Source of the DNA: Lytechinus pictus
Taxonomy: Eukaryota
NCBI RefSeq assembly: GCF_037042905.1
Contig: NC_087251.1
Coordinates: 40,488,001 to 40,552,000, forward strand
Reading direction: 5' to 3'
Length of the DNA stretch: 64,000 nt
Shown: positions 24,377 to 58,579 of the stretch, in pieces
Layout: every line of letters starts with the position of its first letter
Position numbering within the stretch: position 1 is the stretch's first letter
Notes under the pieces: generated by a model
Seen by the model: only the letters and a program-made list of their open reading frames with translations
Databases searched by the model: none
Told to the model about the DNA's origin: nothing
Translations under genes and position numbers: made by a program

Positions 24377-27300
24377 TACCGTCCATCCTGGTAAATCAGT
24401 GCTCACCGTCAGCACACAGATTGTGGTCGTGAATTCACAAATTACTTTTTTGCTCACCTTTTTTTTTTAATTGGAAAGTATACTTGAAGAAGGTATGTGG
24501 ATTTTATGATAGGCAATGTAAGGACAACAGAGAGGGCTCAATCATGTTCTTTCCTCCAGTCAAAGACGTAACATTCTTGAGGTGTTTTGATAAGGACACT
24601 CACAAGTTATAAAATACCAACTATTTGTACATTCATGTATGAATTTGGACAAAAATTGAATCACTACAGGTGTGTGTGTGTTTTTTTTGTAAGCTATTAA
24701 TTTATGACTTAACAAACAACTAGAATATCAAATGTCAATACTGGAGTACCAAAAATGAAGTTTAAGGGGGGGGGGGTAAAAACATTTTGACAAAGTATAT
24801 GGTGTATCTCATAACATAGTGGCAAATCATGTATTTGGCACTGACAATGTGTTAATAGCACAAATATTAATGATGCATATTCAACTTTAGTTAACGCTAT
24901 TGCATTGATACAGAAACTCACTTAATTCGCAATATCCCAGCTGTTTGTAAAGTCATGTATACTATCACAAACAGCAGAATAAAACACCACCATATTGGCT
25001 AGGATAGTTCCATAAAGTATACCATTCACATTACCAGAAACTGTTGTACATGTATAAATCCAAGATTATTCAGTCTGGTACCTAGCTTGGGTAGCTGGCA
25101 TTGAGGATGCGATATAGCATTGATCATGAGGGATTACCAGAGATTATTTGTACTGTAGGTAAAATTGTGTGGTAATTCTTATTTCATGTAGTATAAACAC
25201 ACAAACTCATTAGCATGGGACAACTTGTGCAGTGAGTTGCCATCAATGACAACTCAATCGTACCTACCGGTAGATTAATTTGAATGTTATTTTGATTTTA
25301 TTTGCAATTTTTTCTTTTCTTACTGCAACAAACTGTTCATATTTTGTTTGCTTCTAAAAAGCATTGTGTGAGTACAATATCATTTTAATTTCAATTTTTC
25401 TGTAACATTCCAAAGTAGTCAGTGAATGTATTTTGGATTATATCCATCATAATGAAAATCTAATAATAATACTGATATAATACTGCAGAACTATGGCCAG
25501 TTATAATACTGTAGAACTATGGCCAGTCATAATACTGTAGGAATATACCCAATCATAATACTGTAGAATCTGTATATGTTGAATTGCATGGGACTACAAA
25601 AATCTTTTGATTTAAGGTGAAAATTGCAGATATTCTGGTCCTAAATAATGCTTTGACCTATGACTGATTGAATTATGTAGACTACTAATGATCCCTGGTC
25701 ACTGATCACAAGTAGTCACATTGTGCTGAGGCAAAATAAATGCATGGTCGTGTGCAAGCATAGCCAGTCATTGATTAGGAACAACTTCATCTTATGATAT
25801 TTAATGTAATTAAGGTTTCTGAGCTTTGATATTCCATAACATGCTCTCTAGTTATGGGGAAATCATTTTTGTCTCGCCTGAACAAAGTTCGGCAGAGACC
25901 CAGTGATCACTTTTCCTGTTACCGGTAGTCTGTTAGGTTGTTATGAAAATATTAAAATTTTTGTTCAATTTGCTCTCATTTCTTTATTTCTGCATCGCCT
26001 ATGTTCACATTTGGTACATATGATCCTTAGGAAGTAACACATGTGAGCCCGTGAGAATGATGGGGTCAAAGGTCATCTAGGAGTCAAAAGGTCAAATGAT
26101 ATGAGGCATTTACCATGTACCTCAGAGAAGACCTCGAGTCTTCTGTCCTCTGGTTGCTTGCTTACAAAGCATCCATGCTTTCTTAGCAATCGCCATAACC
26201 ACCTTATAAAGTGATAACAGACATTCCCTCTTTACACTGAAATGATTTACTGTGTGTGAGCTATGTTGCCTATTGGTATGATCGGGTCAAAACAATGTTG
26301 ATAGAAGTTAGATCTGTTAGTTAATTAGAATAGCATTCTTAGAAAAAAATGACACAATTCATGAATTAAAACATTACACAACCTTACACCCATGCAAGAA
26401 TGAATAGGGAAAAAAAGGTGCACTCTGCATCCACTATGAATGACCAACAACTCCCAGATCTGAATATGAATACAGATTACAAATGAATTTGTTACAAATG
26501 CTGATGGTTATGGATGTTAACAAACTCATTTGCATGTTCAAGCCAAAACATCACCGGCCACCAAGCATGTTTATGTGGTGCAAGCCAACTGTCTGTTATT
26601 TGTTCAGAGAAAATGTATCGGAAAGCTTGCAAGATTGTAGGAATTAGGGCAATGAATTGTAATATTCTGAGAATGACCCATTGCTATCACCTTATTTCCC
26701 AAAATGTCAGGGAAGACACTTGGGGGGGAAAAAGTTATTGAGGGATTTTTTTTTCCCCATTTTTTTCATTGACTGATCATGAAAATCTTAAGTGTATTAA
26801 TTTGTGCCAAGATTTACCTTGTAAAAACAAATCATGTCACCAGCACCAGTATCATCATTGTTAATCTCAGTCATTGAACTTTTTTTGAGGAAAAAGCTTT
26901 CCTCCTCATAATATATTAGTAACAAAACAGGAAAACATGAGATGAAATAGATTTTTAAATTTCCAGATTGTATCATGTGATATGTGATTTTTGAATTGTT
27001 TATTATTATCATTAATGTTTGCATTCAAAACTCATCAACTTTATGGTGCAACTTCTCATGAACATTTACTTTATTGTAATGTCAGTTTTTGATGATGAAC
27101 ATATGTGCTTATGCAGAGGTTATCATACTGACTGAATTTATTTTTTTAAGAAAATTGCTACTTGTACCAACTTATTTCTATTACAGATAAGCTAGTGTAT
27201 ACAATTCAATTGCTTTTCCATTTTATGATTGACTTATAGCAGCTGTAAATTTTTGTTTAATTTTCAATCTGATACATTAAAACTTTACTAAACATGTGTT

Positions 27301-28022
27301 TCACCATTCATTACAACTTATGAGGACGAGTATTTCCTATCGTTGATTTAAAAAGAAAAAAGGAAGAGAAAGGTTGAATTGAGGGAAGTTGAATTTCTGG
27401 CCTAGAAAATATTTCTGCATTGTCTTTCTGCTTAAAGTGTGAATACATGTATTTCCATAGTGAAATGGCAATAAGTGCCACATATTATAATGTGGTATTC
27501 AGATAGTGAGGAAGTATATATTTTCTTGTTTTGTTGTATTGTGATATTTGGTGACAGAATAGTTTTTGCACCTTTATCAAGGGTTTTATTGAATTTATAT
27601 AAACTACAGATATTGTTTTTTGTTTTTTTGAAAATTAGAATATTACCAATGAAGTATGTACTTTCAGTTGCGTGTGTTAATCAGTTAATGTAGTTGATAA
27701 TTAGGACAATCACAAAATGTGCCTGAACTTCGTATCTCCTTTTTTATGTTGTGAAAATTTATAAACAAAATGTGTTAGATCTATGCACTTGTGGATTTTG
27801 CAAATATTGTGTTTAGAGTGTTGAATTTAGATATAGTCCTATTTTTTCAGCACTTCAAGTATATATTGTTATGTATGTATATGGTTACTGTGAGATGGAA
27901 ACCCAAGTAAAGCAAACCATACATGCAAGAATAGAGTCTTGTATATGGTGAATTGAGCACAGTAGCAGTACTAGACAGTGAGTCTAATGGGCTGATTTTT
28001 ATGACTGATCATACACAACCGT

Positions 28023-28322
28023 GGAAGCGCCGTGGTGTAGCGGTTCTGACTCTCGCCTTGTAATCAGAGGGTCGTGTGTTCGAATCCCACCATGGCCTAG
28101 CGTCCTTTGGCAAGGCGTCAATCCACGATTTGCCACTCTCACCCAGGTGCTAATTGGGTACCGGTAGGAAACAACCGTCATTGTGGTTGGTTTAGCAAGT
28201 GTGCGCCTAACAAGCTGCTTGAAATGCTATGAATCCAGTGACCGGGTAATAATAATTGTGAAGCGCTTTGAGCTGTTGTAGGTTGATAAAGCACTATATA
28301 AATGCCATTTATTATTATTATT
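28023..28322 (+). mobile_element. tRNA-derived SINE with L2-like 3' end and (ATT)n tail
   Basis: Pol III A box TGGTGTAGCGG, B box GTTCGAATCCC, ~200-bp body, AAGCACTATATAAATGCC plus ATT repeats. Related tails near 47850-47905, 49075-49135 (-) and 56285-56355. Confidence 0.85.
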
Positions 28323-28333
28323 TTCACTGTTAA

Positions 28334-28842
28334 AGGGCAAGTTAACCCTGACAAAAAGTTTACTGTAAGCATAGCAGAAAAAATTATTAAAAAAAAAACA
28401 TCGGTGACGATATGAGGAAAATACATCAAAGATTTTAAAAAGTTATTAGAATTTGAGTCTTTTAATTTGTGACATTATATGCGAGCGGCTTCCCCATATA
28501 TTGTGTAGTAAAAAGATAATAAAATGTAATTTTCTCAAAAAAAAATGAAAATGGTTATTATTGTACCTGAAGTATATCAGCGGACAAATCATTTCACACC
28601 TGCTCCTAAAAAAAAAGATAGTCATCTTGAATCATTGAAAAATTGAAATTTATGCATTTTATATTACACAGCATATGGGGCTGCTGCTCATATATTATGA
28701 CATTAAAAATAAATGAAAAAACTTAAAATTCTAATTACTTTATGAATTTTTGATGGATTTTTCTCAAACCTTCACCAATATTTTTATAATTTTTTCTTGT
28801 ATTTTCACAATGAGTTTTTTTTCATCAGGGTGAACTTCCCCT
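28334..28842. mobile_element. Kolobok-like MITE, different subfamily
   Basis: TTAA|AGGGCAAGTTAACCCTGA ... TCAGGGTGAACTTCCCCT; long imperfect TIR. Confidence 0.65.
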
Positions 28843-31800
28843 TTGAAATGTTTGCTTTATGGACCTAGGTATAAACAGGACTTTAAATAGTCAGCAGTTG
28901 GGTTGAATTCCTATTTTCCTACTGTTTGGATTTAATGTAAATAATTTCTAAATGTTATTATTAAATACGTATTACTGGTGCAAGTATACTTTGATGAGCG
29001 TAGATTTAACTCAGGAGTACATTACCTGGGCCTCATTGCATAAAAGTTACCAGTATTTTGGCATGCAATGGTAACTTGCAAGGAATTCTTAATTTTGATT
29101 GGCTGTTGGTCATCATTACCATGGTAGTTACCATTGGATGGCAAAGTTACCATAATGGTAACTTTTATGCAACAGGACCCTGCAGTTGAAGTGATCATCA
29201 TCTTTACTACATGCACTTGCATTTTATTTTGATATGTATGCAATCCAAATCTTTATTAGTTTTCTGCATGTATGATGTACCCTATTTGAACTATAGTATT
29301 TCACATTTTTCAGTATTTTAAAAGATCATGAATCTTCAAAATGTCAGTTTTCAATCTACCTGTTGAAGGATGTGTATGCATAATTTGATATTTTAGCTGT
29401 ACCAAATAGTATCTTGAACCTTGGAGAAATAATCCCTTTTTCAGCTCATACTGGAAGCTAAACTGGGATCGGGTATCATTCACATATTTTTTTTCTGTTG
29501 GAATGAAATTAATTTCCTCATGTGAAGTTTGTAACTTTAGATCATTTGTGGTTGAAAGATGCATCATTATTTCAATTATTTGAAGTGGTTTTCTATATGC
29601 TCACATCTATATTGATGGGTTCAGTCACATCGACAAAGCCAATTCCAAACTTAACATATGGTATGCCATTGGAAATACTAGTCTGGTTCATTGATATGAC
29701 TGAAGCATTAGTGATCAGGGAACCCCTCTTTCTTTCACTAAACATAATATATTAGTTTAGACAGATCTCAGGGAAGGATACATTGGTTCAATGTACTCAT
29801 CGGTTTCATCAATGTTTGTTCAAGCTCCCTACAGTCTTTTCTAGTGATGCTAGACAGTGTAACATCTCACGTCAAAAGGTCACAAAGACATCGGTTCGTG
29901 TTAAGGGACATTTTTTTTAATGGAACACGAAGCAAGAGGCATTTAGAAGAGTTCTGAAAGTTCAAGCATCTCTCAGCTACACGAGAATGGAAAGGCAATA
30001 TTGTCGAATTAATAGAAGACTGGGATGTGAGATTCTCAACTTCATCATTGAATTAATAATAATAATAATGTGACTTATAAAGCGCCAATTAAGCTGAAAG
30101 AAAATATTTAACAATGTAAAGGGTTCCATTCCTACCAATGTACCTATGTGTGTTTTTCAATAATCCATGAGGTTTGATTGTATGCCACAAATGTCAAAAT
30201 CAAAATCATGATCGCATTTATAGTTGATGGAATCGTTTAATCCATTGAATAATTGCATTAATGTACACTGAATGTGCTGAAAGATGAGAGAAATTTTAAT
30301 CATTCCTTGCATGCCAGTTTTTTATGATTTTGCAATCTGCATTTTTATAAATATACTCATTGATATAATTTCCTGTAGATTGTTTGTTATCGGATTGGGT
30401 AGATCTTTCACGTTGACAAGATGTAATTTGGAATAGTGCATTTTAGATGATTTATTTACATTCAGTGTGAATTAATGAAACTGAAAACGATGGTTTGTGT
30501 TTGTTAACTATGACTTTGTGCAATTTATTATCAGTTTGCTTTTGTTTATTTTAATTGATGAAATATTTTCTGAATCTAAAGATATTATTTCATATTATGA
30601 AAGTATGTTTTATCATGGACCTTGGAGTGAGGTCATATTTTAGATACTTTGATATTAGTTGTCTATAACTAAGTCACAACATTCAAGCCTAGTTTTTCTT
30701 TTGATGTTTTATTCTTATTTCATTTTTGATAGATGAATATAATGAAACTTTCAATCATATCAAAATAAGTTAAAGTGAGATTGATTTTCCAAACCCTTTC
30801 GGACCTGAAGCTCCTTTATGGGGCAGAAAATTGAAATATTTTTCATTTCATGTAAGAATTTTTTAAAGTTGGCATTTGACCTGATCATCTATACCCTACA
30901 TCTACGAATTCAATCTGAATGTGTCCCAAGTTTAAATGGCCAGCATCGTCAATATCTAGAGACATATAAATCTGCTGAAGAACAATTAAAAAAAAGTGAA
31001 GGAAAAAAAAACCCACATGCTCTCGTTTCTAACACAGTATCATCAGATGACAAAGCGTGGCAGGGTCTATAGACCAATTTGGTTTGATGCTGGGTATTTT
31101 TTTTCTTTATTTTCTTATTAGAACACTGCAATTATGCCTACCAAAATATAATTTATGCATTGATATAGCATAGGACCTGGCTCATTGTATAATCAGTTGA
31201 AAGTGCTTTGTTAGACGTTGGAAGCCAATCTCCCCCCCCCCCTAAAAAAAAAAAAAAAATAAATGAATAAATAGATAAATATTAGATAAAAATAAATAGA
31301 TATAAATGAAATGGATAAATGAATTTAAAAATTAATAAGATTTTTTTTTCAAATAAAATAAAAATAAAAATGGCCGCAAGATCAGTGCACTGAAAAAGTC
31401 AAATTCATTTCTAATGTTGATCGGTCTAGAATGAGACTATTCATTCACCAGATCTGTCTTGGACTAGTATTGCCTAACCATAGTCATAGAGATGTCAACC
31501 TTGCTTCTTGTATGTAATGTATGGCCCTGCAATCCACCTTGTCATTTCAAGAGAGCCAAGAAGTAAAAAAAGCAAACTCACACGATCAAATCAGACTTAT
31601 GCAATTATGTTTTGGGTTGTTTGTATTTTTCTGTGATAGTAATTAAGATATTTATATTTATCTATATATTTCTCTAGATATATGTATGAAATGCATCTCA
31701 ATAAAGTAACAATGAAGTGCTTCATTTTGTTGTTGTGTTCGCCTATTTCTGTTTACCAACTTAGTGAGCTGAGGAGTATTTCATGAAGAGAGTTGATAAT

Positions 31801-33844
31801 GATTTTTACTTTGATAAGGTTTTGAAAATCCTCATATCTGATTGGTTGAGAGGAATAATTACTAAAAATGACTTCATGAAAGGTTCTCCATGCGTTCAGC
31901 AACGTATAAACTCTTGCTTGCGAAGGAAAGAAACGAAAATAATATGGGGGAACACTTTATGAATGGTAACGTAGTATAGCGTAGCTTATTGTAAAAAAAA
32001 GGCTGACGTACATAATGATAAAATGATGCTGTGGATATTACTTTTTTATATACTGGTTTATAAATAGTCTTGCTATTTGATTCGATTGGAAGAGATATCG
32101 AAAAAAAGATCTGAAAGAAAACTCGATAGAATGCTTCTTAATACACCACATTGAATTATTGAGATATGTCGCATAGGTATCGATTTCTCGTGGTGGGGGG
32201 GGGGGGAGGGTGATCCCTGATCAGTGGTGTCTGAGTCTCGGCGAGGGAGCGAAGCGACCGAGCGGGGGTTGTGATAGGGGGCTATCCGCCCTCCCACAGT
32301 AGGGACTTTTTAAGAAATTGACATGCGAAAATCGCATTTTTGAGCTTTCTAAAATCACCCAGGCCATAATATTGTAGTCCACTTTCACTATTAAGTTACC
32401 AAACATTGCAACACACAAGTTTCCAGGTAGGCCTATTTTATTTTAAGAAAAAGAACAACATAAAACATTGACAGTTAAATGAAAGTAGACCTACTTGAAT
32501 TCGGTATAGCATAAGTAACGCCTAAAACAACCAATAAGAACAGATTTATTGATCATATGAGGTAAAAACATGAAAAAAATGTTCTGTGTAATGTCAAAAT
32601 GTCATTTTTATGAGCTACATGATTTTTTTTTTCTCGTGTCAGCTAGATTCTGACATAATTGTTAACATGGCAAAAACAAAATAGTAGTACCATCAAAGTT
32701 TTCAAATACTAGTAGTTTACATAGAATCAAATCTAAATTGTGAAATTCAGGGCCTATACATCATCTTCTTGGAAGTAGCGTAGGCTCAAAATTTTATCGA
32801 TTGCCTGAAATTTGAGGCTGCGTAATTTACGACTTTGGATTATTGCTTTGTTACCCTTCAATCCGCATGTTCATTTCAAAGTTTCAAACAATGCTAGTGT
32901 GTATGAGCAAAGCGAAAAAATTATGTCATTCATAGAAGATGAAGCTATATTCCCAAACTGTGTAACTTCTGCTAAATTAATAACATATAAAATGCATTTG
33001 TTGATAAAACAATTTTGCTTTTATGCTCCATCGAAACGAGAGAGGGCCTAAACATTCATGACATATGCATTTGTCCATGGCTCATGAAATTACCCTATAT
33101 CGGCAAGTTCACTTATCACATATCGTATACCAGATGAGTGCGTTGACTGTTTTCAAAACAGACTTGTCAACTTCGGGAAAAAATAGGATGAACTAATTTG
33201 GGGAATTAATTTTGTTCTTTCTTCGTTTTGTGTTTCTGTGTTGTCAATTTTTATTGATTTTATGTATTTTTATAAATTTATCGATTTTTTCTTCTGGAGA
33301 TATACTGGTTTTTTTGTCATGCCCTCGAAATATTTTTTTGGGGGGTGACTGTACAGGCCATCCCCCATCCCCCGGGATTGACACCCATGATTATGTAGCA
33401 TGACGATTTTAAGCGTCATGTAATTTCTGCAACGGAACAAAATACAGCTCATCAATTACTACCAATGATAAGGTAAGGTAGCTAGTAGAAACGTGGAAAT
33501 TATTCATTTCCCTCGTCTCAATCAAACAGGAGGAAATAGTGAGAAAGCGAGTATCTTCCAGGTAACGCAAACATGATCGTGTAAACGATTATCTCAAGAG
33601 CGCTCTATTTTCATTCTTATATTTATGGTTTACAGATATTATTGTCGTCTATGAGGTGATAAAGTCTGTATGTCTAATATTTTCGAAAAGAAAAACAAAA
33701 TACTGTGTAATAATTACAAATATGATGCAGTTCTTCACTGTTTCTTATAATACATTGCCAAATCTTTGTATTTCCCACATCTTTTCACAAGCTCAATATC
33801 ATAAACAATAGTTTGGAAATTCGTCCTGGCCATACAAATCATAA

Positions 33845-33879
<35 letters not shown>

Positions 33880-34139
33880 GGCCTATATGTATATATATAT
33901 ATTTCTTATTTTCCCTTTGTCTAAACTCACATTTGATAACACGTTCTTGAATGATCAAGTAGTATATAATGTAAATATACTGTAAAAAAATGAGTGCATG
34001 CGTAGCGGGTGGTATATATTCAAAGACCGCAGGTGTAAATATGATACAGAGTTATTTGAATGAACTCTGTTCAAATACAATGAGGGTGGGGCATGGGTTT
34101 GCATGTAAACCCAAACAAAGAGTGAACCCTCCAGCGTGT

Positions 34140-34420
34140 TTTGTTCGGGTTACCAACGACCAATCAGGGACTTCCGTCAAGTGCACAACAATAGAACTCC
34201 GCTGGGTTAATTAGGTGACCTCCACTCGGCGCTGTATTTGAATCTTCCATAGCGACACGCTCGTAAACGCATAGTAGATTAATAATCGTATACTGCCGTT
34301 TGGGGAGCATGGGTAATGTTTAGTCATGCGAGGACCGCTGAAGATTAACTATTTGGATACAGGATAGATATTATTAAGCTGTCATTGGCGAGAGGAGGAA
34401 TTAGTCATTTTCCACGCTTT
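34140..34420 (+). promoter_or_regulatory. Candidate promoter of the kinase-like gene
   Basis: CpG-richer stretch with CCAAT box (GACCAATCAG ~34158), reversed CCAAT (~34384) and Inr-like TTAGTC (34401). Motif evidence only. Confidence 0.35.
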
Positions 34421-34652
34421 CTGTCAATTTCAGCGAGATCGAGCTCACTTGTTGCGCAACTTCAGACGCAGACGGTAGCAGTAATAAACAGTGTTTTTGG
34501 AATCGAGCTCGTCGACGTACATGTAGTTGCGACATATGGAAAGTAAACGAGACTTTCAACGGTAATTTACGGTGAAGAAGATTGAACTGCATAAATTGAT
34601 TCATTAACTTTGCTTGGTTACTTTGCTGATCTTCCAAGGAAATAAGTTCAAC

Positions 34653-35867
34653 ATGCATCAGTATACTGAAGTGGAGAAGCTTCGCGCTGGCTATTTCGGC
34701 ATTGAATATAAATACAGAGAGAGGGGTATCAACGGAAAGGATCGACTTGGCAAACTTGTACCGGTGAGCAAGCGAGGAAAAGCCAAGTGGGTCTTGGAGC
34801 AGTACTATCGGAAGATGGTTTTAAGACTCCCAAAACACGACAACTTAGTCAAGATCAAAGCAGCTTTTTTGAACAAAGTCACCGAAGACGGCGAAGACGA
34901 GGATGATATGTTTTTATGCACAGTTTGGAAGTTATACGGTGAGAAGAGTCTAAACCTGAATGCTTATCTTCTCTCTCGTCATGACAGACTTAATGATGAT
35001 GCCTATAAATCACTGATGATGCAGTTAGCCCAAGCAATGGAACATCTTCATTCTAATGGTACCGCCCATAATGCGTTAACACCTCACAGCGTAATGATTG
35101 TCGAAGGAGTCAAAGGACAAGCCGTGGTCAAAGTAGGAGATTATGGACTGACCCAAGTATGTGGTGCAGCTTGCAGTCAGGACTATAAACCAGATGGACA
35201 ACTGCCTAGGAGTTTGGACTTTTACCTGCCTCCAGAAGCCGCCAAAGAGGGTTGGGGACATCCAGGTCAAGCCAACACCACGGCGGATATTTTCATGCTT
35301 GGACTCCTGTTCAGTGCGATGACCGAGCATACAGTACTGGAAGGAGCTGATCAAAATGAAGAGACTATTATTGCTACTTTTGTCAAGTTCCCAGGGTACG
35401 GTGCTGTGCCGATTGGAAAGTTCCTGAATACCAACCCTAGCATCAATCTTGATCATCATCTTCATAGCAAACTCAGTCCGGAGCTCCGCAGTCTGGTCCG
35501 ACGAATGACTCTCATTGACGTCGACTCTCGACCTCCGGCCAACGGCGTCATCCATATGCTGACTGCTTGCGAAGCCATTCGAGGAAACGAGAAGACAGGG
35601 GCGAATATCGAGTCGCAAACAACGACCAGGTCGTCGTCGACGTTGCCACGGAATACGACGGTGACGAGAAAGACGAGTATGAGAAAGAGAGCAGCCACCA
35701 ACCCAGCCATGTTCAACCCTTGTGTATCACCACCACAAATGCCTAGGATGAGCTCTGCATCCGTCATCAAGCCACCAGCACCAACCAAAACCAATTTCAT
35801 CAGGAAAGCATCAATGAGGGCCAACAACTACTTGAGAAGAAGTCGATCAGTCAAGATTTCAAATTGA
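34653..35867 (+). CDS. Intronless STK35/PDIK1L (NKF4)-family kinase-like protein, predicted pseudokinase, 404 aa
   Basis: First ATG in TTCAAC ATG context. Kinase subdomains recognisable (RAGYFG, RLGK, HNALTPHS, DYG, FYLPPE, ADIFMLG, RP). Family-like segments LNAYLLSR, MMQLAQAMEHLH, KVGDYGLTQVC, DFYLPPE, VPIGKFLNTNP. Confidence 0.88.
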   Translation: MHQYTEVEKLRAGYFGIEYKYRERGINGKDRLGKLVPVSKRGKAKWVLEQYYRKMVLRLPKHDNLVKIKAAFLNKVTEDGEDEDDMFLCTVWKLYGEKSLNLNAYLLSRHDRLNDDAYKSLMMQLAQAMEHLHSNGTAHNALTPHSVMIVEGVKGQAVVKVGDYGLTQVCGAACSQDYKPDGQLPRSLDFYLPPEAAKEGWGHPGQANTTADIFMLGLLFSAMTEHTVLEGADQNEETIIATFVKFPGYGAVPIGKFLNTNPSINLDHHLHSKLSPELRSLVRRMTLIDVDSRPPANGVIHMLTACEAIRGNEKTGANIESQTTTRSSSTLPRNTTVTRKTSMRKRAATNPAMFNPCVSPPQMPRMSSASVIKPPAPTKTNFIRKASMRANNYLRRSRSVKISN

Positions 35868-36411
35868 TAGGTGTGTTGTATATTTATATATATATATATA
35901 AATACATATATATATATATATATTTATTTATTTATTTATATATACCTTACCGCAAATACTGGAAGAATGCGGAATCAGCAGTCGAGCTTCCAGGTCTATC
36001 TTCTTGTCAGCTTCCTTCAAGCTTCAATAAGTTTAAGGAGGCAGTGGGGCAAGTTGGTGAAAAATATATATATATACATATAATTTTTGAGCGAGCAATA
36101 GTCTTCGAGAAAATTGGGTTAGGTGGGGTTGAACCCCATGCAATTGGACTCGAAGCCCAACCATATATAATTTTTATATTCATAAGCACTTTCAAATAAA
36201 GTAATCCGCATTGCCCCCCCCCCCCGAAAAAATAAAAGAGAGAGGGCAATAATTATGATCTATACACGTATGCTCCCTTAAAAGCGGCATGGGGATGGGG
36301 TGCAGAATGCCTCCGACAGAACTTTGATAACGTTTGGTGGATTTTCAGAAAAATGCTATACATGTAGTTGTAAAAGTGTGCCCCTCGCCTCGATGCTGTG
36401 TTTATTATTAT

Positions 36412-36494
36412 CAGGGGCGGATCCAGCTTTCGCCAATAGGGGGGGCCGAAAAATATTTTCATCAACATTTTTTTTCGATTGGCCGCTATAAATC

Positions 36495-36528
<34 letters not shown>

Positions 36529-37478
36529 GGGGTAGTCCTAACTAAGGACTGAAGTTTTAGTTTTTATTGTTATAAACAAGATAAGGTATCTCATTTGGTC
36601 TTAATATATAATGCGAACGCGAAGCACGAGCTCAAATTCTAGACCTGAATACTTTGAGCAGTTTTTATAATCATGAACAAAGATAAGTATCCAACTAATC
36701 AATGCGAGCGCGAGCCGAAATTTTAATATAGTAACGTGAAAAGGGACTCAATGAGGATCGACTGTTTTTAGTGATTAATGAAGAGGATACAAGTATCACC
36801 AATTAAATAATGAGAGTGCGGAGCGCGAGCTCAAAATTGTTGATATTCCGACCTGAAAACTGGACAGTCTAAGCGCATTTTTATTTAAATAAAGAACAAG
36901 CTGTGTGTCTCAAAAAATTTAATGCGAGCGCGAAGCACGAGCTTAAATTTTTGATATAGGGCCTACTCACATGATAAAGGGGCATTTTGAGAAATTTTGG
37001 TAAGAATTTCCAAAGAGGATAGGTATCTCACAAATAAAATAATGCAAGCGCGCAGCGCAAGCTGAAAATTTTGATATTAACAATTTGTGTAAATCAAACA
37101 AAATAATGAAAGCTTGATATGCGAGCTAAAATATTGTGTGCAAATTGATTTCAGAACTGGATATACTAAGTGCCATTTAATCCTCTTGAATGAGATTCTT
37201 TACACAGGCAATTAATGCGAGCGCGAAGCGCGAAATAATTTTTTTTATATAAAGTCTATTTTCCAATTCTTCCCCTAACCTTTTTCTTGTTTCTTTTCGG
37301 GGTCGGGCCGGCCGTTACGAGGCTGTAAATTACACATCATGGGTATAATACCTCTTTCTTACTTTTCTTTGTGTTTTTCATCGTTTCTATCAAGTTTAAG
37401 AGTACATTTTTTCTGCAGGTTGTCAAAAATAGGGAGGGGGGCCGGGGCCGGCTCGACCCCCTCCTGGATCCGCGCCTG
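36412..37478. mobile_element. hAT-type MITE with internal degenerate tandem units (ATGCGAGCGCGAAGCGCGAGC)
   Basis: CAGGGGCGGATCCAG / CTGGATCCGCGCCTG ends; ATTATTAT on both sides; related internal units at ~59310-59800. Confidence 0.75.
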
Positions 37479-38676
37479 ATTATTATTATTATTATCATCA
37501 TCCTGAAGAAGTTTAGAATCGAACTCTACTGCTGTACATGAAGATTTATAAAAAAATGATTACGCGTTTTGTAACTTGACATCTTGATGAGATATTCAAG
37601 TTTATCTTTAGGTTCCTTTAAAAAGAAATGAAATGTATCCCTTTGAGTCCATATAGATATAAGGGAGACTGGTTGAAGTACAGCCATTTACCTTCATCAC
37701 CAATACTTTTCTCCCGCCATATCGGGTTTACCATGAATATTTCTAAAGGGTGATTTATTTTCAAACATACATTTAACATTTTTCTCATTCTACTTTTTGA
37801 AAGGGATGGCTTCCAAATTAGTGTTCATGGATTTGAGGAAGTTTGTCTGATAATAATAACAGAAATATCCAATTTCCATCCTTATAAGAGCTTCATGTAG
37901 ATGCTATTCAGTTCGATGAAAGAAATTCTAACGCCCGTTTTTTCATTGATCCACATGGATACAAATTCGGTTTGGGTACTCACTGTTTTATTGGTAATTT
38001 CGTACTGAGGAACTTCAAGTATATGCCTAGCAGCGTATATGCACCGACATAGCTACGCATCTGGCTCATTTCATTATCCAATGAAAGTGACTTTGTCCGA
38101 AAGTGTTTGAAAGCTAGCTCTCATGCAGTTCTGGGCGCCATATAAAATGAGTGCTCTGAGATGGGAGTTATTATCAGTGCCTGTACTTGTAACAATCATG
38201 ACAATGATATCCTTTTCTCATTTTCTCTTCCTGCAGGATCATTACGGCTTGGAGCTGCAGGTACATAGATAAATGACTTGCTTTGTGTGCGTGGGATTCT
38301 CTAAGATGTCTGGTAAACTCTGAAATCTGCCGATAATTTCCGATGAAATTTTGAGTTTTTGGCAATCTAAGGACAAGCTCTGACTCATCATGAGAGAGAC
38401 AAGGATCTTTGGCTCACAATCAAGTCGATGTGTTTAAAGAAATAAATTCGCGAGTTTTGAGATTAGAATTTCTACCAAACAAGTTATGGGTAGTGCATAG
38501 TGTGTAGTCAGCAGGCCCCGAGCATGCTGAAGTAGAAGGCATGCATAGGTCAGAACAGTTACATCTCTGTTTATAATTACCATCTTAATGTTTTCTCGAC
38601 TTTTAGAAGTTTAAATACGTCGATGCATAGCCTTGTTCGAATACCTCTAACATTATGCTCATCCCTGACAAATCAA

Positions 38677-39302
38677 AGGGACATCCAACCCAAATAAAAA
38701 GCTTTTGTTTTGAGGAAAAGGAAAAATCAGACAGGTACATGTATATAGGTGGAAGTTTGAACAATATCGGACAAACAATAAGAAAGTTATGAATTTTTAA
38801 TTAAAAGTTTATTAAAAGAAAATTGTAATTACTATCAAATTGGCCGCATGTGGTGATGTCATAGTGATGTGAGCACTGATCTCCCCAATGGATGTACAGT
38901 AAGGCAAGGACTAATCTACCATTTACTCCAATACATAAAATGGCTAAAATGTCCCTTTTTGTTCAGTGTTGCCTCAGCCAATATCTTTTTTCTTTCACGA
39001 GGACATAAAACAATATATGCTACTTTGTTTTACTTTAATTACTGCTCATGGGAATAATTGTAGGTACTGCGTACATGTAGAAATCCATAATTCTGTTATG
39101 GCTTATGGGAAAGTTGTTCCTTTCTACCACTTGTAAGGAATTTTTCTATCATCAATTTAAATTGACATAGTCTTACGGATCTCAACTTTAAAACAGCCAT
39201 AACTTACTTATTGCTTGTCTGATTTCTGTTAAACTTTCACCATTCTATTTTACTGAATTTTCTCTCTCACACAACATTTTTCTGACCGGTTTGGGTTCCT
39301 CT
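38677..39302. mobile_element. Old Kolobok-like MITE
   Basis: AGGGACATCCAACCC / GGTTTGGGTTCCTCT ends and shared AAGAAAGTTATG subterminal motif. Confidence 0.55.
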
Positions 39303-40811
39303 TTGACTGTAATGAAGACTTGCTTTGCTAGAGTGAATATAATTGTATATCTTATAAGGATATAGTGTGTTTTACTTGAATATATATCGATTTGAACATA
39401 TTCAAAGATTGTTGAATGTTTTCATACGTCATCATTTTAGGTACCATGTATCACATCATGCATTTGCATAACATTCCCCAAAAAGAACTGTTTTCACATG
39501 TTTTCTAAAATGTCTTTATGAATATACCGTTATATTCTTCATTTAACATTAATGTTTGATATAATGTTTAGTCTGAAATATTGTATTTTCTTGTAAAAAC
39601 GTTAAGTTATTATGTTTTCGAAATCTTATGATAACATTTCTAAAAACGCCTCCAAACTATAGCTTTTAAAACATGTCGATTGTCATTTTTAAATGTTTTT
39701 TACCATACGTAATTACGTATTAACCATACGTGTTGATGTTTAACAGTCTTTATAGCATTCAGCTATACTGTACACATACGGTACACCACACACATGTATT
39801 TTAAAGAGGGCTAAATTTTCGAAACGGTGTGCTATTTGCCGGGGCTATTTGTGATTTAGAGAGCGAGCAAAACAATTATCATTTTATTTTTACCAATTTA
39901 AATCGTGTCATTATATTTGTGGTGAGAAAAGAATCTACACGTAAATATCTTTATTCCTAGCACCTCAATTCGCGCCTATATAGTCGCAAGTCTACACATG
40001 GGATAATTGAAAAGCAGTTTATTTTTAAAGTTTTGATTGTAGTGTAGCATTTTTGGCTTGGTAGAAAATGCTTATGTACATTGACGGCACGCGTTGCCGT
40101 TTGTATCAACCCTTTTAAATCACATGTTAAGTAATTGCTATGTCTTGCCTCCTCATGACTGATATGTGTTTATTTATGTCATTTCTTTATTTAAACCAGG
40201 ACAATTTAACATTTTGCATTCCATTCCTTAGTAAGTAATTTAATCAATATCGCTTAATAGCATTGTATATTGATCAGGCGTATAACTTTTATATTTTACA
40301 TATTTTGCTCTCCCTTAATTCTGAAAGGCGGTCAGTATTGCAAATGATATTGCACGTCACGTCCTGGCTTGTTAAATTATCATAAAGGTGATGGAAAGGG
40401 AGCGATAAATGATAAAGAAGGAAAGAATTTTAAAAAGTGAAATACCAGTAGTGGCAAACATACTGTAATTTATTCGTCACCAACTGTATATAGCCTACAT
40501 GTACGTGTAAATAAAAACATTTTTGACTGTAGCCCAATGCATTTGGAACGCAGGAAGCAATGATATACATGTATTTGATTTCTTTCGAGCGGAAATGTCT
40601 ATTAGCGAAGAATTAGACGGATAATTCTAGAAAATCCAGTTGTGTAGCAGTTGTGAAATAGCAGATAGTGAAATGTTAATGTGTGGTGTTAGTTTCCTTG
40701 ATTACATGTACTTAGAGGTCCTTTCTTTAATGAGATAAGACGCGAAGGCTTGTGATTTGGCTCGTATCTCGTGGCTACACGTTTAAAATCATAGATCAAG
40801 CAATATTATGT

Positions 40812-40813
40812 AT

Positions 40814-40849
<36 letters not shown>

Positions 40850-41030
40850 GAGCATTTATATTGCGATGCTACTATAATGAAATATTCTGCTGCGTATAAC
40901 AAAATGAATGATACAATATAGAGTATTACTGAAAAGAGAAGTCTTAAAATGCATTTTGAACATACTAACATTGGGTGTTTCCCTTATAGATTGTGGGAGT
41001 GTGTTACATAATTTGGGAGCCGCATGATTA
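40812..41030 (-). mobile_element. 5'-truncated L2/CR1-group LINE 3' end
   Basis: Minus-strand translation AAPKLCNTLPQSIRETPNVSMFKMHFKTSLF resembles the L2-type ORF2 C-terminus; followed by an (ATT)n tail at ~40815-40845. Confidence 0.65.
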
Positions 41031-41207
41031 TTATGCAAATGCTCTATCACCAAGGGTAGGTTTTGATCTTCCAAGAGGATATTTCAAAAGTGTGTTAACT
41101 TTTGAACTAACCAGACAGTCATTATTCGTTTGCATGATGAGATTGACATTATTTTGAGATTCCAACGCACGTGGGGAGTTCGAAAAAGACAAACAAATTG
41201 TAATTTA

Positions 41208-41477
41208 GGGCCTTTTCACACGTGAATCTCGAATAATCATTGTGTTTAGAATAGTCGTACCTTTCACACGCTCACTTGAAAACTGTGATTTGAGTGAAAT
41301 TTAACTGGAATTCACCTCCGGAGTAGAATTTAAATTTGTGATTGTGATTAGCGTTCGTGATTCTATTCATGTTATGGTTTGGTTTCACACGTACTAAAAA
41401 AAAAATCGCCATTATAGCCTTATTTTTCACTGGAATCATCATTGAAATAACGAGTTTGTTTTACCGTGTTAAAGGGC
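41208..41477. mobile_element. Short Harbinger-like MITE
   Basis: GGGCCTTTTCACACG / CGTGTTAAAGGGC imperfect TIR. Confidence 0.4.
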
Positions 41478-42397
41478 GGCAAGACGAGTGGATAGGTGAA
41501 AGTGGAGCCTACACGTTTTAACTATCCACGAATCTTGACCTGGCTCCTGTATTACTAGAGTGTGCGATAAATCGCTATTAAAGAACTATTTTGATTGGTT
41601 GCTAGTTGGTCTTTTGAACTAGATTTTACAAAAAGCAATGATCTCAATTGGCGATTGCAATTCTACTTTTTGTTTGACGAAATATATACCTTCTAAAATA
41701 TGATGTATGTATCTGTTTCACTGAAACTTTATACTCGTATGCAGAAAATATGATGTGGTTAAGGGAAATTTAAACGGCCAATAAACAACCTGCCATCCTT
41801 TTACTGAGAATAGACATGTATTATATTGTCTATACATTTCAATCATCAAATTATGATTAAAGTTTTATATATGCCAGGTTTCCCTTCGGAGCTGCCACAA
41901 GTTCTGTTAAAGTATTTGAATTAAAAGCTTCGATCTTGTACAATTTACCGAGAATATGTTCGTTATGGTTTCATTATTCTGCTCCTTTTTGCAATTATAG
42001 TTCATGAAGATGTAAAGTGAGAGAGGAATTGACACGGTTTACGATAATATAGTGAAATGGAAGCGTGTAAGTATGAAAGAGTGATCTTTGGATAAGACAG
42101 TTGTGAATATCAATTTGAAGCTCACGATTGGGGATGCAAACATCGTATATCATTACTTGTTATTCCAAACTTTGAGATGCATATTTCATAGTGTTGCCGT
42201 GCATTGATGCTCTGACCATTGATAACCACCTCATTCTTTACCATAAGACATATTTTCAATGCCTTTGCCTTAAGGATTTGAAACCCGAAAACCCAAGGCA
42301 TATTGAATGCACTTTTTGATTTTGTAGATGGTAAGTGATAATGACAAACATCGTCACCATAATACTGCTACAATGCTTTTATATCAAGTTAACTATA

Positions 42398-43352
42398 CAG
42401 TACGTATCAAAAAAAAGTTTACACTTAGAAATAATCATTGTAATTGAAAAAAAAAATTGTAATATCCTGTCCACATTTGTACATTGGCACGGATCCCTTT
42501 AAGCGAATGACGATATAGCTGGCGAGAAAAATCTTTCCGCTTGAGTGAGCATCACTTACTTTTGAAAAGTTCGTGAAAACGATTTGCGCAGAGTTTGGAA
42601 ATAGTTATAGGGATAAAAAGTGGATACGTTAATCATGAAGAACGCTTGGACTTAAGCTAACAAGATTGATTTGGAGCTAGGAACCTTTTACTTTTTTAAA
42701 TTATTTTCTTTCCCAAAACACTCTACCGAACACCAAGCGCCCCCCCCCCCCCCACACACACACCGAGGTCATCTGCTTTACACGGAGCATGACATGAAAT
42801 GGAGTAGGCGGTATTTTTCTTTTTGTTAATCATTATCATGCTTGGGAAAAGTGTGGAGAAAAAGTATTAAATGAAATATGAAATGTAAACACACTGTAAA
42901 TAAAAAAAGTGAAAAAACGCTGGGGATGTCTGAAATAATCTTTTATTTACGTTCAGTTATGTCCTCAGATCCAGCTGGCAAACACAATGTAAAAGATTGT
43001 TCTTATAGGGTTAAAATGGTAATTTGGGTGACAAAGTTGTTACAAAATGTTAAAATGTATCTGTTTTATTTAAGTTGGCAGAAAACACAAAAGAAATAAA
43101 TGAGAAATATACCGCACGGTCAGTTTGTTTTCGCCGTTTTTCCATGACTCGGCCTGAAAATGAGCATTTCTGCGCTAACCAATATCTTCGAGCTTATAAA
43201 ACTGGACAGTACTCACTTAAGTGTAACATTCTGCCAGCATTTTACTTTCATTTGATAGATGAGACCCAAACCCAATAATACATGTAAAAAATGCATCTTT
43301 TTCAATTCCCAGGACTTCTCTATAAGTGTAAACCTTTTATTGATACGCTCTC
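42398..43352. mobile_element. Tc1/mariner-like MITE
   Basis: TA|CAGTACGTATCAAAAAAAAGTTTACACTTA ... TAAGTGTAAACCTTTTATTGATACG; TA flanks. Confidence 0.7.
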
Positions 43353-44029
43353 TATAGAGAAGTAATAGCATAGCAGAAGTATATGTAGAAATAACAAAAA
43401 TCACTGGTAATAATATCAGAAGGGCCATGGCTGATTCCGCCACTATACTACTAACACTCCAATAACTCTTACTTGTAAGGATAACGTTAATAATTATGAT
43501 GAGGATTGGTAAATTAGTATATGGGAAACATATTCCTATCATCCTACTCTGTATATGCCCTTAAGATGTATACTTCCCAAAATTTGGCAAGTTCCGACTC
43601 GGAGTCCTCGTATAAGACACAGTAGAAGTCCGGATCTATTCTAAGTTAGTTGAGCCACATGGCTGATTTGCTTGTTTGTTATGTTAAAACAGTAGTCGAG
43701 TAGGCCTACATCTTATTTAAGGCACTTGCCGGTTTAAAACAAAACTCGAATTTCAATTTCATTTTATTTTTCCAGTACGTTTGTCCCATTGAAGACACCG
43801 TTAGAAAAAAAATCGCACCGAAATTAAAAAAATCGCCAAAAATAAAAAACGCGTGTGATTACCAACGCGACGCGAGTGATTACGAACGCGAGTGAATATA
43901 ATAAGCCCCCCCCGGGGGCACTTCCATTGACGAGTGGATACCATGCGCGACCATGGGGTCTCGAAAAGCACCCTAAACAAGTATTTTCCATATTCTGAAA
44001 ATGCACCCCTTGTGAAAACCTACCCTTAA

Positions 44030-44632
44030 AGGACAAGTCCACCCCAACAACATGTTGATTTGAATAAAAAGAGAAAAATCCAACGAGCATAACTCTGAAA
44101 ATTTCATCAAAATCGGATGTAAAATAAGAAAGTTATGATATTTTTAAGTTTCGCTTAATTTCACATAATAGTTATATGCACATCCTGGTCGGTATGCAAA
44201 TGAGGGAACTGATGACATCACTCAATCACTTTTTCTTTTGTATTTTATAATTTGAAATATGAAATATTCTAACTTTCTCCTCATTGTCCTGTGAAACAAA
44301 GTTTTATTTCTCACTGAACATGTGGCGTTACCATTGCTTAACATTATATGGTTTAGTCAAGTTGGTCCTTATTGTCAAATCTGTAATAATTGAAATATTG
44401 TATAATTCAAACAATAAAAAACAAAAGAAATAGTGAGTGAGGGACATCATCGATTCTCTCATATGCATGTGACTAAATTGTGCATAGAACTATTTTGTGA
44501 AAAATAAGCAAAATTTCAAAATGTCATAACTTTCTTATTTTACTTCCGATTTTGATGAAATTTTCAGCATTATCTTGTCTGATTTTTCTCTGTTATTTCA
44601 AAACAACTTTTTTTCTGAGGTGAACTTGACCT
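44030..44632. mobile_element. Kolobok-like MITE, inserted in another repeat that starts CCCGGGGG at ~43910
   Basis: TTAA TSD (44026-44029, 44633-44636); near-identical reverse complement of 57000-57600. Confidence 0.85.
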
Positions 44633-44944
44633 TTAACAAGTATTGGAAACAAAACGATACTCTTGGCAAGTATTTCCTGAATTGAACCCCTTAACAAGTA
44701 CAGCGATATTTTATATGCCACGGACCTCGGTTTTACTTTGTCACGGGGGTCCATGCTGACACATAGTTGTGAGGGAGATCACTGCACGTCATAGTAGCAG
44801 TGCAGACTTTGAAAACATCCATGATGAATAATTATTCCCCAAAATACCTTTCATATGATAATAAAATGCTAAATCCATTGACCCTTATAACCTAGTCCAA
44901 GTTTCATTCGACAGATCCATTTACTTTCTAAGCATTTCCAACAC

Positions 44945-45043
44945 TAATAACCTTGGTTAAGATTTTAATGTTGACGACGCCGCCTCCGCCGTCTGAAAAG
45001 CGGCGCCTATAGCCTCGCTCTGCTTTATGCAGGCGGGACAAAA
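44945..45043 (-). mobile_element. 5' end of HINE-like element
   Basis: Reverse complement of the 3979-4105 head (…AAAAGCGGCGCCTATAG…GCAGGCGGGACAAAAA). Confidence 0.6.
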
Positions 45044-54942: not shown

Positions 54943-55642
54943 GCATAACATTTATTAGTATCAAACACTGCAACTCACTTTATACGTTTCATAATTTTAC
55001 ATTAAAAAATGACTTGTCATTCATGTCTGTTGGATACACCCATTTCTGCATCTAATTTAGTTTGAATAATTATTTTCTTTAGGAATGATTGACAACACTA
55101 ATTACCTTGTGCAGAATAATGTTCAGACAGAATAAGTGCCAAAGAACATCAATTAAAAAAATGGTTCAATATTCATAATACTGTTCACAGCCTTGCTTGC
55201 ATACACACAACTTTATGCAAGACTATAGTCTCCTCCTTTCCCCAATAATTTTTATTCCAAATCAGAAAAGATAGGTATCCCATCTTCAGAAATTAAGAGC
55301 CTCGTTCTTTATGAAAATCTGATTAAAAATTCAATACTTTCGGGTTTGGAATGCACTCCCATTCTACTAATAACAGTGAATTTTTGTGGGACCTGTTTTA
55401 GTGCGAAAAGGGGGCATCAATCGTCCATGTAGTTTTCTGTAACTTAATACACATGGGCTGCAAAAGAAGGGGTATCAGTAATGTGTACAAAAACACAGAA
55501 ATAACCATCAGAGTGTGATTTCATGCTTGTTTAGGCGCCCCCCTCCCCCTCTGACTCAGCCAACCACTTTCAAAACAATTACACTGCCCCAGTTACAAAC
55601 AGCCCCCCCCCCCCCTGCCCCCCAGGAATGATTATATCTTAC

Positions 55643-55816
55643 CTCAATAAGGGATCCTTTGGCATTGAAGATTAACTGATAAAAGAAGAATATAGGTATG
55701 TTGACCATGGTCATGAGGGCGAGGATCCATCCAATCATATAACCCCACCAGGGGTATACATAGGTGTTGTTATACGTCAGTGGTTTGTATTTCACCAAAC
55801 TAAAGATAAAGATTGC
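55643..55816 (-). CDS. SLC6 exon, end of TM11 to TM12 ([30 protein letters not shown]...KGSLIE)
   Basis: YKPLTY..YVYP.W..GW motif typical of GAT/TauT/CT1; cag/gtaag; 174 nt, phase 0-0. Confidence 0.95.
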
Positions 55817-56493
55817 CTGCAAAAAAAAAGGAAAATCATAACAATATAATTCAAATATTATTATTCTCATTAATATAAAACACGGTGAGGTGCTCAACTG
55901 GGGGGGGGGGGGGCACCCAGGGAAAGTGCCCCTTTTGCTTTGTTTTGATTTGTGCAATGTGCCTGACCTTTTCTAAGAAGTGCCCCTCCCCCCTTTTTCA
56001 TGTGTAATTTTTCTGCTCTGCTTTTCATAATTTTTTTTCTAAATCTGTGCATTTTCCTGTGCCCCCTCTTATATGAAATCCTGGATCCGCCCATGGATAG
56101 ACTGAGAGCAGATCTGATTTAAACGAACTAAGAAACTCATTCATATCAATTTGACTATGCTTTTCTTGCTATATTAAATCAGTCCCTTACAAGTTTTTAA
56201 GGGACTCCCCAGGGAGTGTAAGATGTGCATACATTATGTGCGGGAATGACTGATTGAATCCGATGACGGGGTAATAATATATCTGTAAAGCACTCAGACA
56301 GTCCTTCCCATGTATTAAGCGCTACATAAAAGCAAAATATTATTATTATTATTATATCATTGTCAGCCTGACAATGTCTAATCTTCCATGTCTCATATTA
56401 GATATAATGTTTATTGAGATTACATTGGAGTTGGGGAAATGATTACTCTCCAAATAAAAATTGGAAAAAAAATGTATTATTGGTTATACTCAC

Positions 56494-57926: not shown

Positions 57927-58150
57927 TATATTTGTGAAAGTCCATTATTTTCCTCACCAATCTATCAATAATAATAAGTTCATCTGGCTCTTAAAATTTG
58001 TCCATAAAATTTTGTATTGATCTCGCCTTCAATAATTATAGCTTTCCACATTAACACATGTTATCCTACCGTCTGTGTTCCACCTAATGATAACCGTGCT
58101 CTTCAATCCTTCTTATCATAATCTTCTTTCATTTCCTTCCCTATACTTAC

Positions 58151-58253
58151 CGTAAGCCCATCCGATGGTGAAGCTTTCAAACATCGACACCCAGAGAAGA
58201 ACAAAGCCACTGGCCGCATAGTAATCAAACAATTGGAAGATGTACATGCCTCC
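58151..58253 (-). CDS. SLC6 exon, TM10 ([34 protein letters not shown])
   Basis: [16 protein letters not shown] is characteristic of the GABA/taurine/creatine branch; cag/gtaag; 103 nt, phase 0-1. Confidence 0.96.
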
Positions 58254-58579
58254 CTGGATAGAGTAAGAGAGGGCATTTAATTATCAGTTAATTGCATTCT
58301 TACAGAACCACGTCTGCATTCCAAACCCCCTTTAGCCCATGAATTAAAAACATGATAGCTGCTCCAGTGTGAGTGTGCAAGGACACCAAAATACGTGACA
58401 GTGGTGTAAGGCCAATTAGTCTTGGACTTCAAGCCTGAATGTGTGCCTCTTTTTTTTTCGCCAAAAGGGGGGGGGGGGCGAAAAACAAAGTTCATCCACA
58501 CCTATGCTCTTTTATCATGCATTCAAATAAATGATAATGCTTAACGCATTATTGGTAACTAGATGTGCACTTGTTTTAA

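Follow-up and report, generated by a model that had tools for sequence, protein, structure and literature searches.

The question raised by this locus is whether a kinase-like gene that has lost its catalytic residues is a decaying copy of an active enzyme or encodes a protein kept for some other task. The gene lies in a window of 64,000 nucleotides (64 kb) of the Lytechinus pictus genome, which is the whole stretch of DNA analysed here; all features described below are on the plus strand unless stated otherwise. Its open reading frame of 404 codons is uninterrupted, as the original prediction had stated; it runs from an ATG at 34653 to a TGA at 35865-35867, and a stop codon stands in frame directly upstream of the ATG. 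The coding sequence is a single exon (34653..35867, stop included) specifying a protein of 404 residues, P0001, of which 399 agree with those of a named Lytechinus pictus record. The gene is transcribed and spliced and its frame is intact; neither the catalytic Asp nor the catalytic-loop Lys survives in any member of its family, and the C-lobe scaffold is conserved. We consider P0001 to be a kinase-fold protein, probably a scaffold or regulator, rather than a decaying copy.

Four sequencing runs aligned to the locus define the transcript. The 5' UTR (34340..34652) is unspliced in these runs, and the contigs of runs X1 and X5 start at 34340, although the 5' end of the transcript may lie further upstream. 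A few sense raw reads of run X22 fall at 34128-34325, upstream of 34340 and just past a CCAAT at about 34160, a possible longer 5' end. The 5' UTR carries two uORFs, with ATGs at 34521 (one codon) and 34536 (nine codons); one allele, in assembled form, differs by two substitutions and a deletion of 5 nt within 34520-34530, across the first of these. No splice joints are seen within 33930-35880. In all four runs the match to the window breaks at 35871 and its continuation maps to 38237 onward, marking a GT...AG intron of 2366 nt in the 3' UTR (35871..38236), which has a polypyrimidine tract and a CAG acceptor and whose donor GT sits 3 nt past the stop codon. The second exon, also 3' UTR, starts at 38237 and is given a provisional end at 38700, with candidate AATAAA signals at 38441 and 38693. 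At its start (38237-38280) the reads of two raw-read RNA runs show substitutions and a short indel relative to the window, differences that we read as an allele; the contigs of two other runs equal the window exactly. Two stranded RNA runs contribute 28 and 30 reads (about 6% of each run), which lie on a single strand and include spliced ends. Their first mates are all on the minus strand, which implies a sense transcript, given the usual library type. Expression is low, at roughly 2 fragments per kb per million as estimated from the read counts.

No second kinase domain was found among the 2060 stop-to-stop frames of the 64-kb window, and Rfam gave no match within 25000-45000; the Pfam scan of the neighbourhood covered 141 of the 841 frames of at least 35 residues in the window. 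Comparison of the DNA upstream of the gene with that of L001, a brittle-star-type genomic contig encoding the family member P0008, yielded no convincing conserved block. Two exons of an SLC6/SNF (sodium:neurotransmitter symporter) gene, at 55559-55972 and 58119-58280 on the minus strand, are convergent with the pseudokinase gene.

The gene had been described as intronless. Only its coding sequence is one exon, given the 3' UTR intron here and an apparent coding intron in the brittle-star member. In L001 the kinase domain is likewise a single exon, and similarity stops at a CAG/GT donor within the Gly298 codon, the acceptor lying beyond view; three further brittle-star-type gene calls diverge at Gly298, and full-length forms run on. 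From these breaks we infer a coding intron at Gly298 in the ophiuroid members. The kinase domain is uninterrupted by introns in both genomic sequences (the window and L001), and an ancient retroposition of the gene is possible. Vertebrate PDIK1L, for its part, is described as having one intron only (PMC2737284).

The gene is under purifying selection. The coding variants, pooled from four runs and representing at most four samples, number 20, 12 synonymous and 8 non-synonymous, which gives a pN/pS of 0.20 (binomial p 5e-4). Between the gene and L001, compared over 288 codons, pN is 0.34 and pS, which is saturated, is 0.80. The original proposal of a catalytically dead kinase-fold protein retained by selection is supported.

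Relatives of P0001 are seen in sea urchins, brittle stars, starfish, a crinoid and one hemichordate. Named members are known from the urchins Lytechinus (two species), Strongylocentrotus and Diadema (two), the brittle star Amphiura, the starfish Asterias (two records), the crinoid Anneissia and the hemichordate Ptychodera, with sea cucumbers not among them. XP_054758272, XP_041467916 and XP_001175788 are the orthologues in Lytechinus and Strongylocentrotus. Echinoderms and hemichordates separated more than 500 million years ago. The description of the gene as a lineage-specific paralogue holds only for echinoderms plus hemichordates and fails if a recent origin is meant, since four echinoderm classes and a hemichordate share it. 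A word-seeded search with P0001 recovered 9 proteins; exhaustive phmmer comparison with 1.84 billion representatives recovered five with E-values of 1e-30 or less and one more at 4e-30, each of the family type, and such matches precede the canonical kinases in its ranking. The partial records P0022 and P0030 also belong to the family. In P0022 similarity stops just past Gln168, and an intron may sit at this different position in one more lineage. Two other searches, both word-seeded, missed known members: a profile of 15 family sequences returned 10 matches at E<=1e-20, none of them new, and the hemichordate member returned only itself at E<=1e-25. In a metagenome scan one of 68 loci (L001) encoded a family member, the others being weak generic kinase matches that were left aside. 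Database names for the members are inconsistent (STK35-like, pdik1l-like, CDK-like 5, wee-1.3-like and uncharacterized). The family seems to be uncharacterised and misnamed as several active kinases: we found no account of it as a pseudokinase in the literature, although the gene may be listed in the 2006 sea-urchin kinome, in the 2019 pseudokinase survey or in the supplements to either.

The pseudokinase domain comprises residues 1-310 (34653..35582) and matches Pfam PF00069 with an E-value of 1.4e-16 over residues 4-300. Placing the end of the feature at 35590, as was done originally, covers this domain and leaves out a 94-residue tail. The motifs quoted in the original prediction are real and lie where it put them, namely RAGYFG (34683-34700), RLGK (34743-34754), HNALTPHS (35067-35090), DYG (35139..35147) and PPE (35229..35237); it overlooked the remodelling of the adenine pocket and the conserved motifs of the tail. 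The dead catalytic loop, HNALTP(H/Y)S, replaces HRDLKPxN. The His of the predicted form is allelic, a C>T variant at 35085 exchanging it for the Tyr of the nearest named record, which the reads show as well. All 22 family sequences that cover the loop lack both the HRD Asp and the catalytic-loop Lys; 21 of them have HNALTP, the crinoid having HGFLNP, and in 20 the Mg-binding Asn has become Ser. A kinase-fold protein is counted as a pseudokinase when at least one of the VAIK Lys, the HRD Asp and the DFG Asp is absent (PMC13519141), and the uniform loss of the HRD Asp places the family in this category. Judged from these residues, P0001 is very probably incapable of phosphate transfer.

The changes extend to the ATP site of the N-lobe (34683..34754), which consists in P0001 of RAGYFG, Glu18 and Arg31-Leu32-Gly33-Lys34. 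In canonical kinases the beta2 Val and the beta3 Ala cap the adenine ring; P0001 has Glu18 in the first of these columns and Leu32 in the second, and retains the beta3 Lys as Lys34. We compared such columns between seven family representatives and 25 NKF4-like controls. The beta2 Val column holds Glu, Asp or Ser in all seven representatives and V or I in 23 of the controls, and the beta3 Ala column holds Leu, Met, Val, Thr or Arg in all seven and Ala in 24 controls. The first Gly of the Gly loop is lost throughout (7/7), with G13, F15 and G16 kept in every case. The gatekeeper and hinge positions (34926..34931), canonically Met and Glu, are Trp92 and Lys93; the Trp is found in the urchin and starfish members, and the exchange of the hinge Glu for Lys in six of the seven representatives and none of the controls. 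The alphaC Glu column has Gln50 in P0001 and Glu in two of the seven, the urchin Glu lying one residue earlier. The beta3 Lys is retained in 6/7 and the Asp of the DFG equivalent in 21/22, the hemichordate member lacking both and having Asn in place of the latter, and the PPE equivalent of APE is present in 7/7. ATP binding has probably been lost, because the beta2 Val, beta3 Ala and hinge Glu that shape the adenine pocket are replaced; that P0001 is a non-binder of the Class 1 type is a view we hold with some reserve. Glu18 and Lys34 may be paired inside the pocket.

Beyond the active site, the C-lobe is well preserved. The residues that hold the fold together (H139, P194-E195, D212, G217 and R293) are kept in all seven representatives. 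Others are peculiar to the family: K119, P247, Y249, F257 and D267 occur in 7/7 representatives and in at most 4% of the 25 controls. These new residues cluster in the C-lobe, where K119, the (F/Y)PGYG hairpin, K256, F257, D267 and R284 are found. The hairpin (35388-35402), which is family-specific, belongs to an NKF4-type insert between alphaF and alphaH (35325..35453), in keeping with the NKF4-like segments noted originally, and is a candidate docking surface. An alignment-based AlphaFold model has a mean pLDDT of 66, with ten-residue blocks of the C-lobe mostly at 80-95 and some at 68-74; it places a two-strand hairpin at residues 243-253 (84-90 in such blocks). The activation segment is modelled at pLDDT 44-69, and residues 1-16 and the tail below 50, so that the pocket geometry is taken from alignment columns only. 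A single-sequence AlphaFold model was discarded (pLDDT 34). Foldseek and VIA-align comparisons of the alignment-based model returned kinase folds throughout the matches listed, the best with a Z of 20.6 and an rmsd of 3.6 over 252 residues, and together with the Pfam match they assign P0001 to the eukaryotic protein kinase fold. Sequence, profile and fold searches of the PDB gave generic kinases and no close solved relative among the matches listed; NCBIfam gave bacterial kinase models far below cut-off, and the ESM Atlas generic kinase clusters and no model of P0001. Homodimer prediction for residues 1-310, run without an alignment, scored 0.24 against a mark of 0.32, which speaks neither for nor against a dimer.

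The kinase domain is followed by a basic tail of 94 residues (35583..35864), modelled at low confidence, which bears an NLS-like RKR cluster (35682-35690), PCVSPPQ (35718-35738), FIRKASMR, a PKA-type site (35796-35819), and the terminus RSRSVKISN. We take the basic cluster to be an NLS and the RRAS-type motif to be a PKA-type site on the strength of consensus motifs. Conservation of the tail between classes is poor, the brittle-star and starfish tails being merely 19-30% identical. A basic cluster is nevertheless present in all 11 full-length tails; [FLIV][IV]R[RK]ASxR is present in all ten that are not from the hemichordate, and a terminal S-x-K-I/L in 10 of the 11, the hemichordate being the exception in both cases. 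The shuffle values for these motifs are not independent, since the pattern was derived from the same sequences. In the hemichordate tail the RRAS motif is missing and the C-terminus is a hydrophobic stretch; a mechanism based on the tail would therefore not be family-wide.

The source of the family is best sought among the NKF4-like kinases. In a quick tree of 80 rows, 12 family rows form one clade (SH-aLRT 98), as do the seven representatives (100/96) in a mixture-model tree of 41 rows from which the Gly-loop, beta3, alphaC, hinge, catalytic-loop, DFG and APE columns were dropped; the hemichordate branches first within the family, the crinoid next and the other classes last. STK35, PDIK1L and their amphioxus orthologue make up a separate clade (100/97), outside which the family falls. 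The alphaF-alphaH insert with VP(I/V)G..L..NP that P0001 shares with NKF4-like kinases, in a set gathered with P0001 as query, supports an NKF4 ancestry. A clade of all 32 NKF4-like rows as against other kinases is not rejected (p-AU 0.27) in the 41-row tree, whose backbone is weak, with several long branches and outgroup rows classed by eye. Assignment to the STK35/PDIK1L family, as first proposed, is compatible with the trees for the wider NKF4-like radiation and is not supported in the strict sense, a forced sister grouping being rejected (p-AU 0.019, from a single alignment of 41 rows with long branches). The amphioxus protein P0101, a sister of the family in the quick tree (SH-aLRT 97), was set aside as a candidate once its support fell to 74/41 without the catalytic columns.

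Could the family nonetheless be the true echinoderm STK35/PDIK1L orthologue, dead in Ambulacraria and retaining a non-catalytic role such as SCP4 binding? The core STK35/PDIK1L clade has no echinoderm row in either tree, and RefSeq names several family members STK35-like or pdik1l-like. Moreover, an HMM of the insert, built from four STK35/PDIK1L sequences and applied to 171 proteins, places the family directly behind 16 STK35/PDIK1L-type rows (the hemichordate member first at E 2.5e-7, P0001 at E 9e-5), a ranking biased by the use of P0001 as query in assembling the 171 proteins. Against such orthology stand the rejected sister grouping, an identity of only 27% between P0001 and the amphioxus core member, and the core full-domain HMM, by which most other invertebrate NKF4-like kinases outscore the family. 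The family also lacks the canonical HRDLKPDN and DFG of the core group. A sea-urchin gene earlier called STK35, SPU_003710, which may or may not correspond to the P0001 gene, was placed outside the STK35L gene cluster by Goyal 2009 (PMC2737284). Taken together, these points make a dead orthologue improbable. We find far less to recommend a young, non-functional processed copy of STK35/PDIK1L. The intronless coding sequence would suit such a retrocopy, for which the original prediction had named a dN/dS near 1 and no expression as the signs; the gene instead neither evolves neutrally nor lacks a spliced transcript. This reading is refuted by the open frame and dead motif common to four echinoderm classes and a hemichordate, the pN/pS of 0.20 and the spliced sense transcripts, and the chance that it is right is negligible.

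A more substantial alternative concerns the pocket itself. P0001 could be one of the pseudokinases that bind nucleotide or metal (Class 2-4), serving as a conformational switch or exerting some non-canonical activity through Lys34, Asp163 and the G-x-F-G core. The near-universal retention of that Lys and Asp and the invariance of G13, F15 and G16 would fit retained binding, and unusual binding modes are documented in FAM20A, SelO and others (PMC13519141). However, both adenine-capping hydrophobics are replaced in all seven representatives, the urchins and starfish have a Trp gatekeeper, the Mg-binding Asn is Ser in 20/22, and the hemichordate has dispensed with both the Lys and the Asp. We accordingly rate such a switch as rather unlikely, if less so than the dead orthologue. 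The explanation that we prefer, though with appreciable doubt, is that P0001 is an ancient NKF4-derived pseudokinase, dead and probably ATP-blind, which would serve as a tail-regulated nuclear scaffold via its FPGYG patch.

Under this preferred explanation, the family, putatively single-copy, would descend from an NKF4-like kinase related to STK35/PDIK1L, would date at the latest from the last ancestor shared by echinoderms and hemichordates, and would have been retained since. P0001 would act as a protein-interaction module, with a docking surface formed by a C-lobe patch of the (F/Y)PGYG hairpin together with Lys119, Lys256, Phe257, Asp267 and Arg284. Entry into the nucleus would depend on the basic tail, whose phosphorylation, at the RRAS-type PKA site and a nearby Ser-Pro, may switch the location or binding of the protein. 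As partners, the phosphatase SCP4/CTDSPL2 or an NKF4-like kinase that is still active would be likeliest, because STK35/PDIK1L act in a nuclear SCP4 complex; this step is a guess by analogy that we think doubtful. Bolder still, and improbable as a whole, is the proposal of an undescribed family that may be as old as the deuterostomes, if the amphioxus proteins with HGGLT loops belong to it, and was lost in vertebrates, its members being ATP-blind, phospho-switched nuclear regulators of an NKF4 kinase-SCP4 module acting through the FPGYG hairpin as a docking element of recent invention. If true, the P0001 family would be to that module what KSR3 is to RAF.

Comparison with known systems puts these features in context. 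Behind the P0001 family itself, the commonest eukaryotic matches are STK35/PDIK1L and other NKF4-like kinases. STK35/PDIK1L share with the family the insert ending in VP(I/V)G..L..NP and a paucity of introns, and the amphioxus member resembles P0001 in having its kinase domain from the N-terminus. In the P0001 family, by contrast, the catalytic Asp and Lys are lost, the pocket is remodelled, a basic tail of 94 residues is present and the long pre-hinge insert of the vertebrate proteins is absent. STK35/PDIK1L are described as having HRDLKPDN, requiring catalysis and working in a nuclear complex with SCP4 (PMC8796272). As a kind, pseudokinases are common and familiar; another ancient example in sea urchins, KSR3, is encoded by a different gene and has been studied well. 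Both KSR3 and P0001 are ancient non-chordate pseudokinases with a remodelled ATP site, and KSR3, as an allosteric activator of RAF, offers a precedent (PMC10322840). Its distinguishing marks, according to the same account, are a cysteine-rich domain, a 14-3-3 site reading HSLSEP, VLIQ in the VAIK position and the absence of DFG (PMC10322840), none of which is found in P0001. With the Class 1 pseudokinases, of which VRK3 and STK40 are pocket-filled examples, the family shares a lost catalytic loop, charged or bulky side chains in the adenine pocket and a conserved C-lobe, a likeness in sequence that is set against the retention of Lys34 and Asp163 in P0001. Membership of Class 1, in which neither ATP nor cation is bound, is described as set by binding assay (PMC13519141).

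The replaced residues are themselves conserved across the echinoderm classes and the hemichordate, which points to a specific non-catalytic job. For the NKF4 kinases, which are poorly understood, the family provides a natural experiment on their non-catalytic surface, and its single coding exon in a tractable genus, Lytechinus, makes for an easy knockout.

The probable source radiation comprises the invertebrate NKF4-like kinases of amphioxus, hemichordate, starfish, Lingula and sea anemone, which are named STK35-like or pdik1l-like. The HRD is kept in 19 of its 21 rows, and starfish have a canonical representative, P0077. The amphioxus proteins P0101 and P0102 (Branchiostoma) have dead HGGLT loops and hydrophobic C-terminal tails, and are probable pseudokinases annotated as active pdik1l-like proteins. 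A Gly/Ala-rich hydrophobic C-terminus resembling a tail anchor is seen in the NKF4-like proteins P0020, P0064, P0075, P0101 and P0102, from hemichordate, amphioxus and others. The radiation is large and divergent, with tandem kinase domains in some of its members (P0023, P0026, P0046, P0077, P0081, P0084, P0099 and others); P0046 and P0020, both from Ptychodera, are on contigs of equal length and probably lie on one chromosome.
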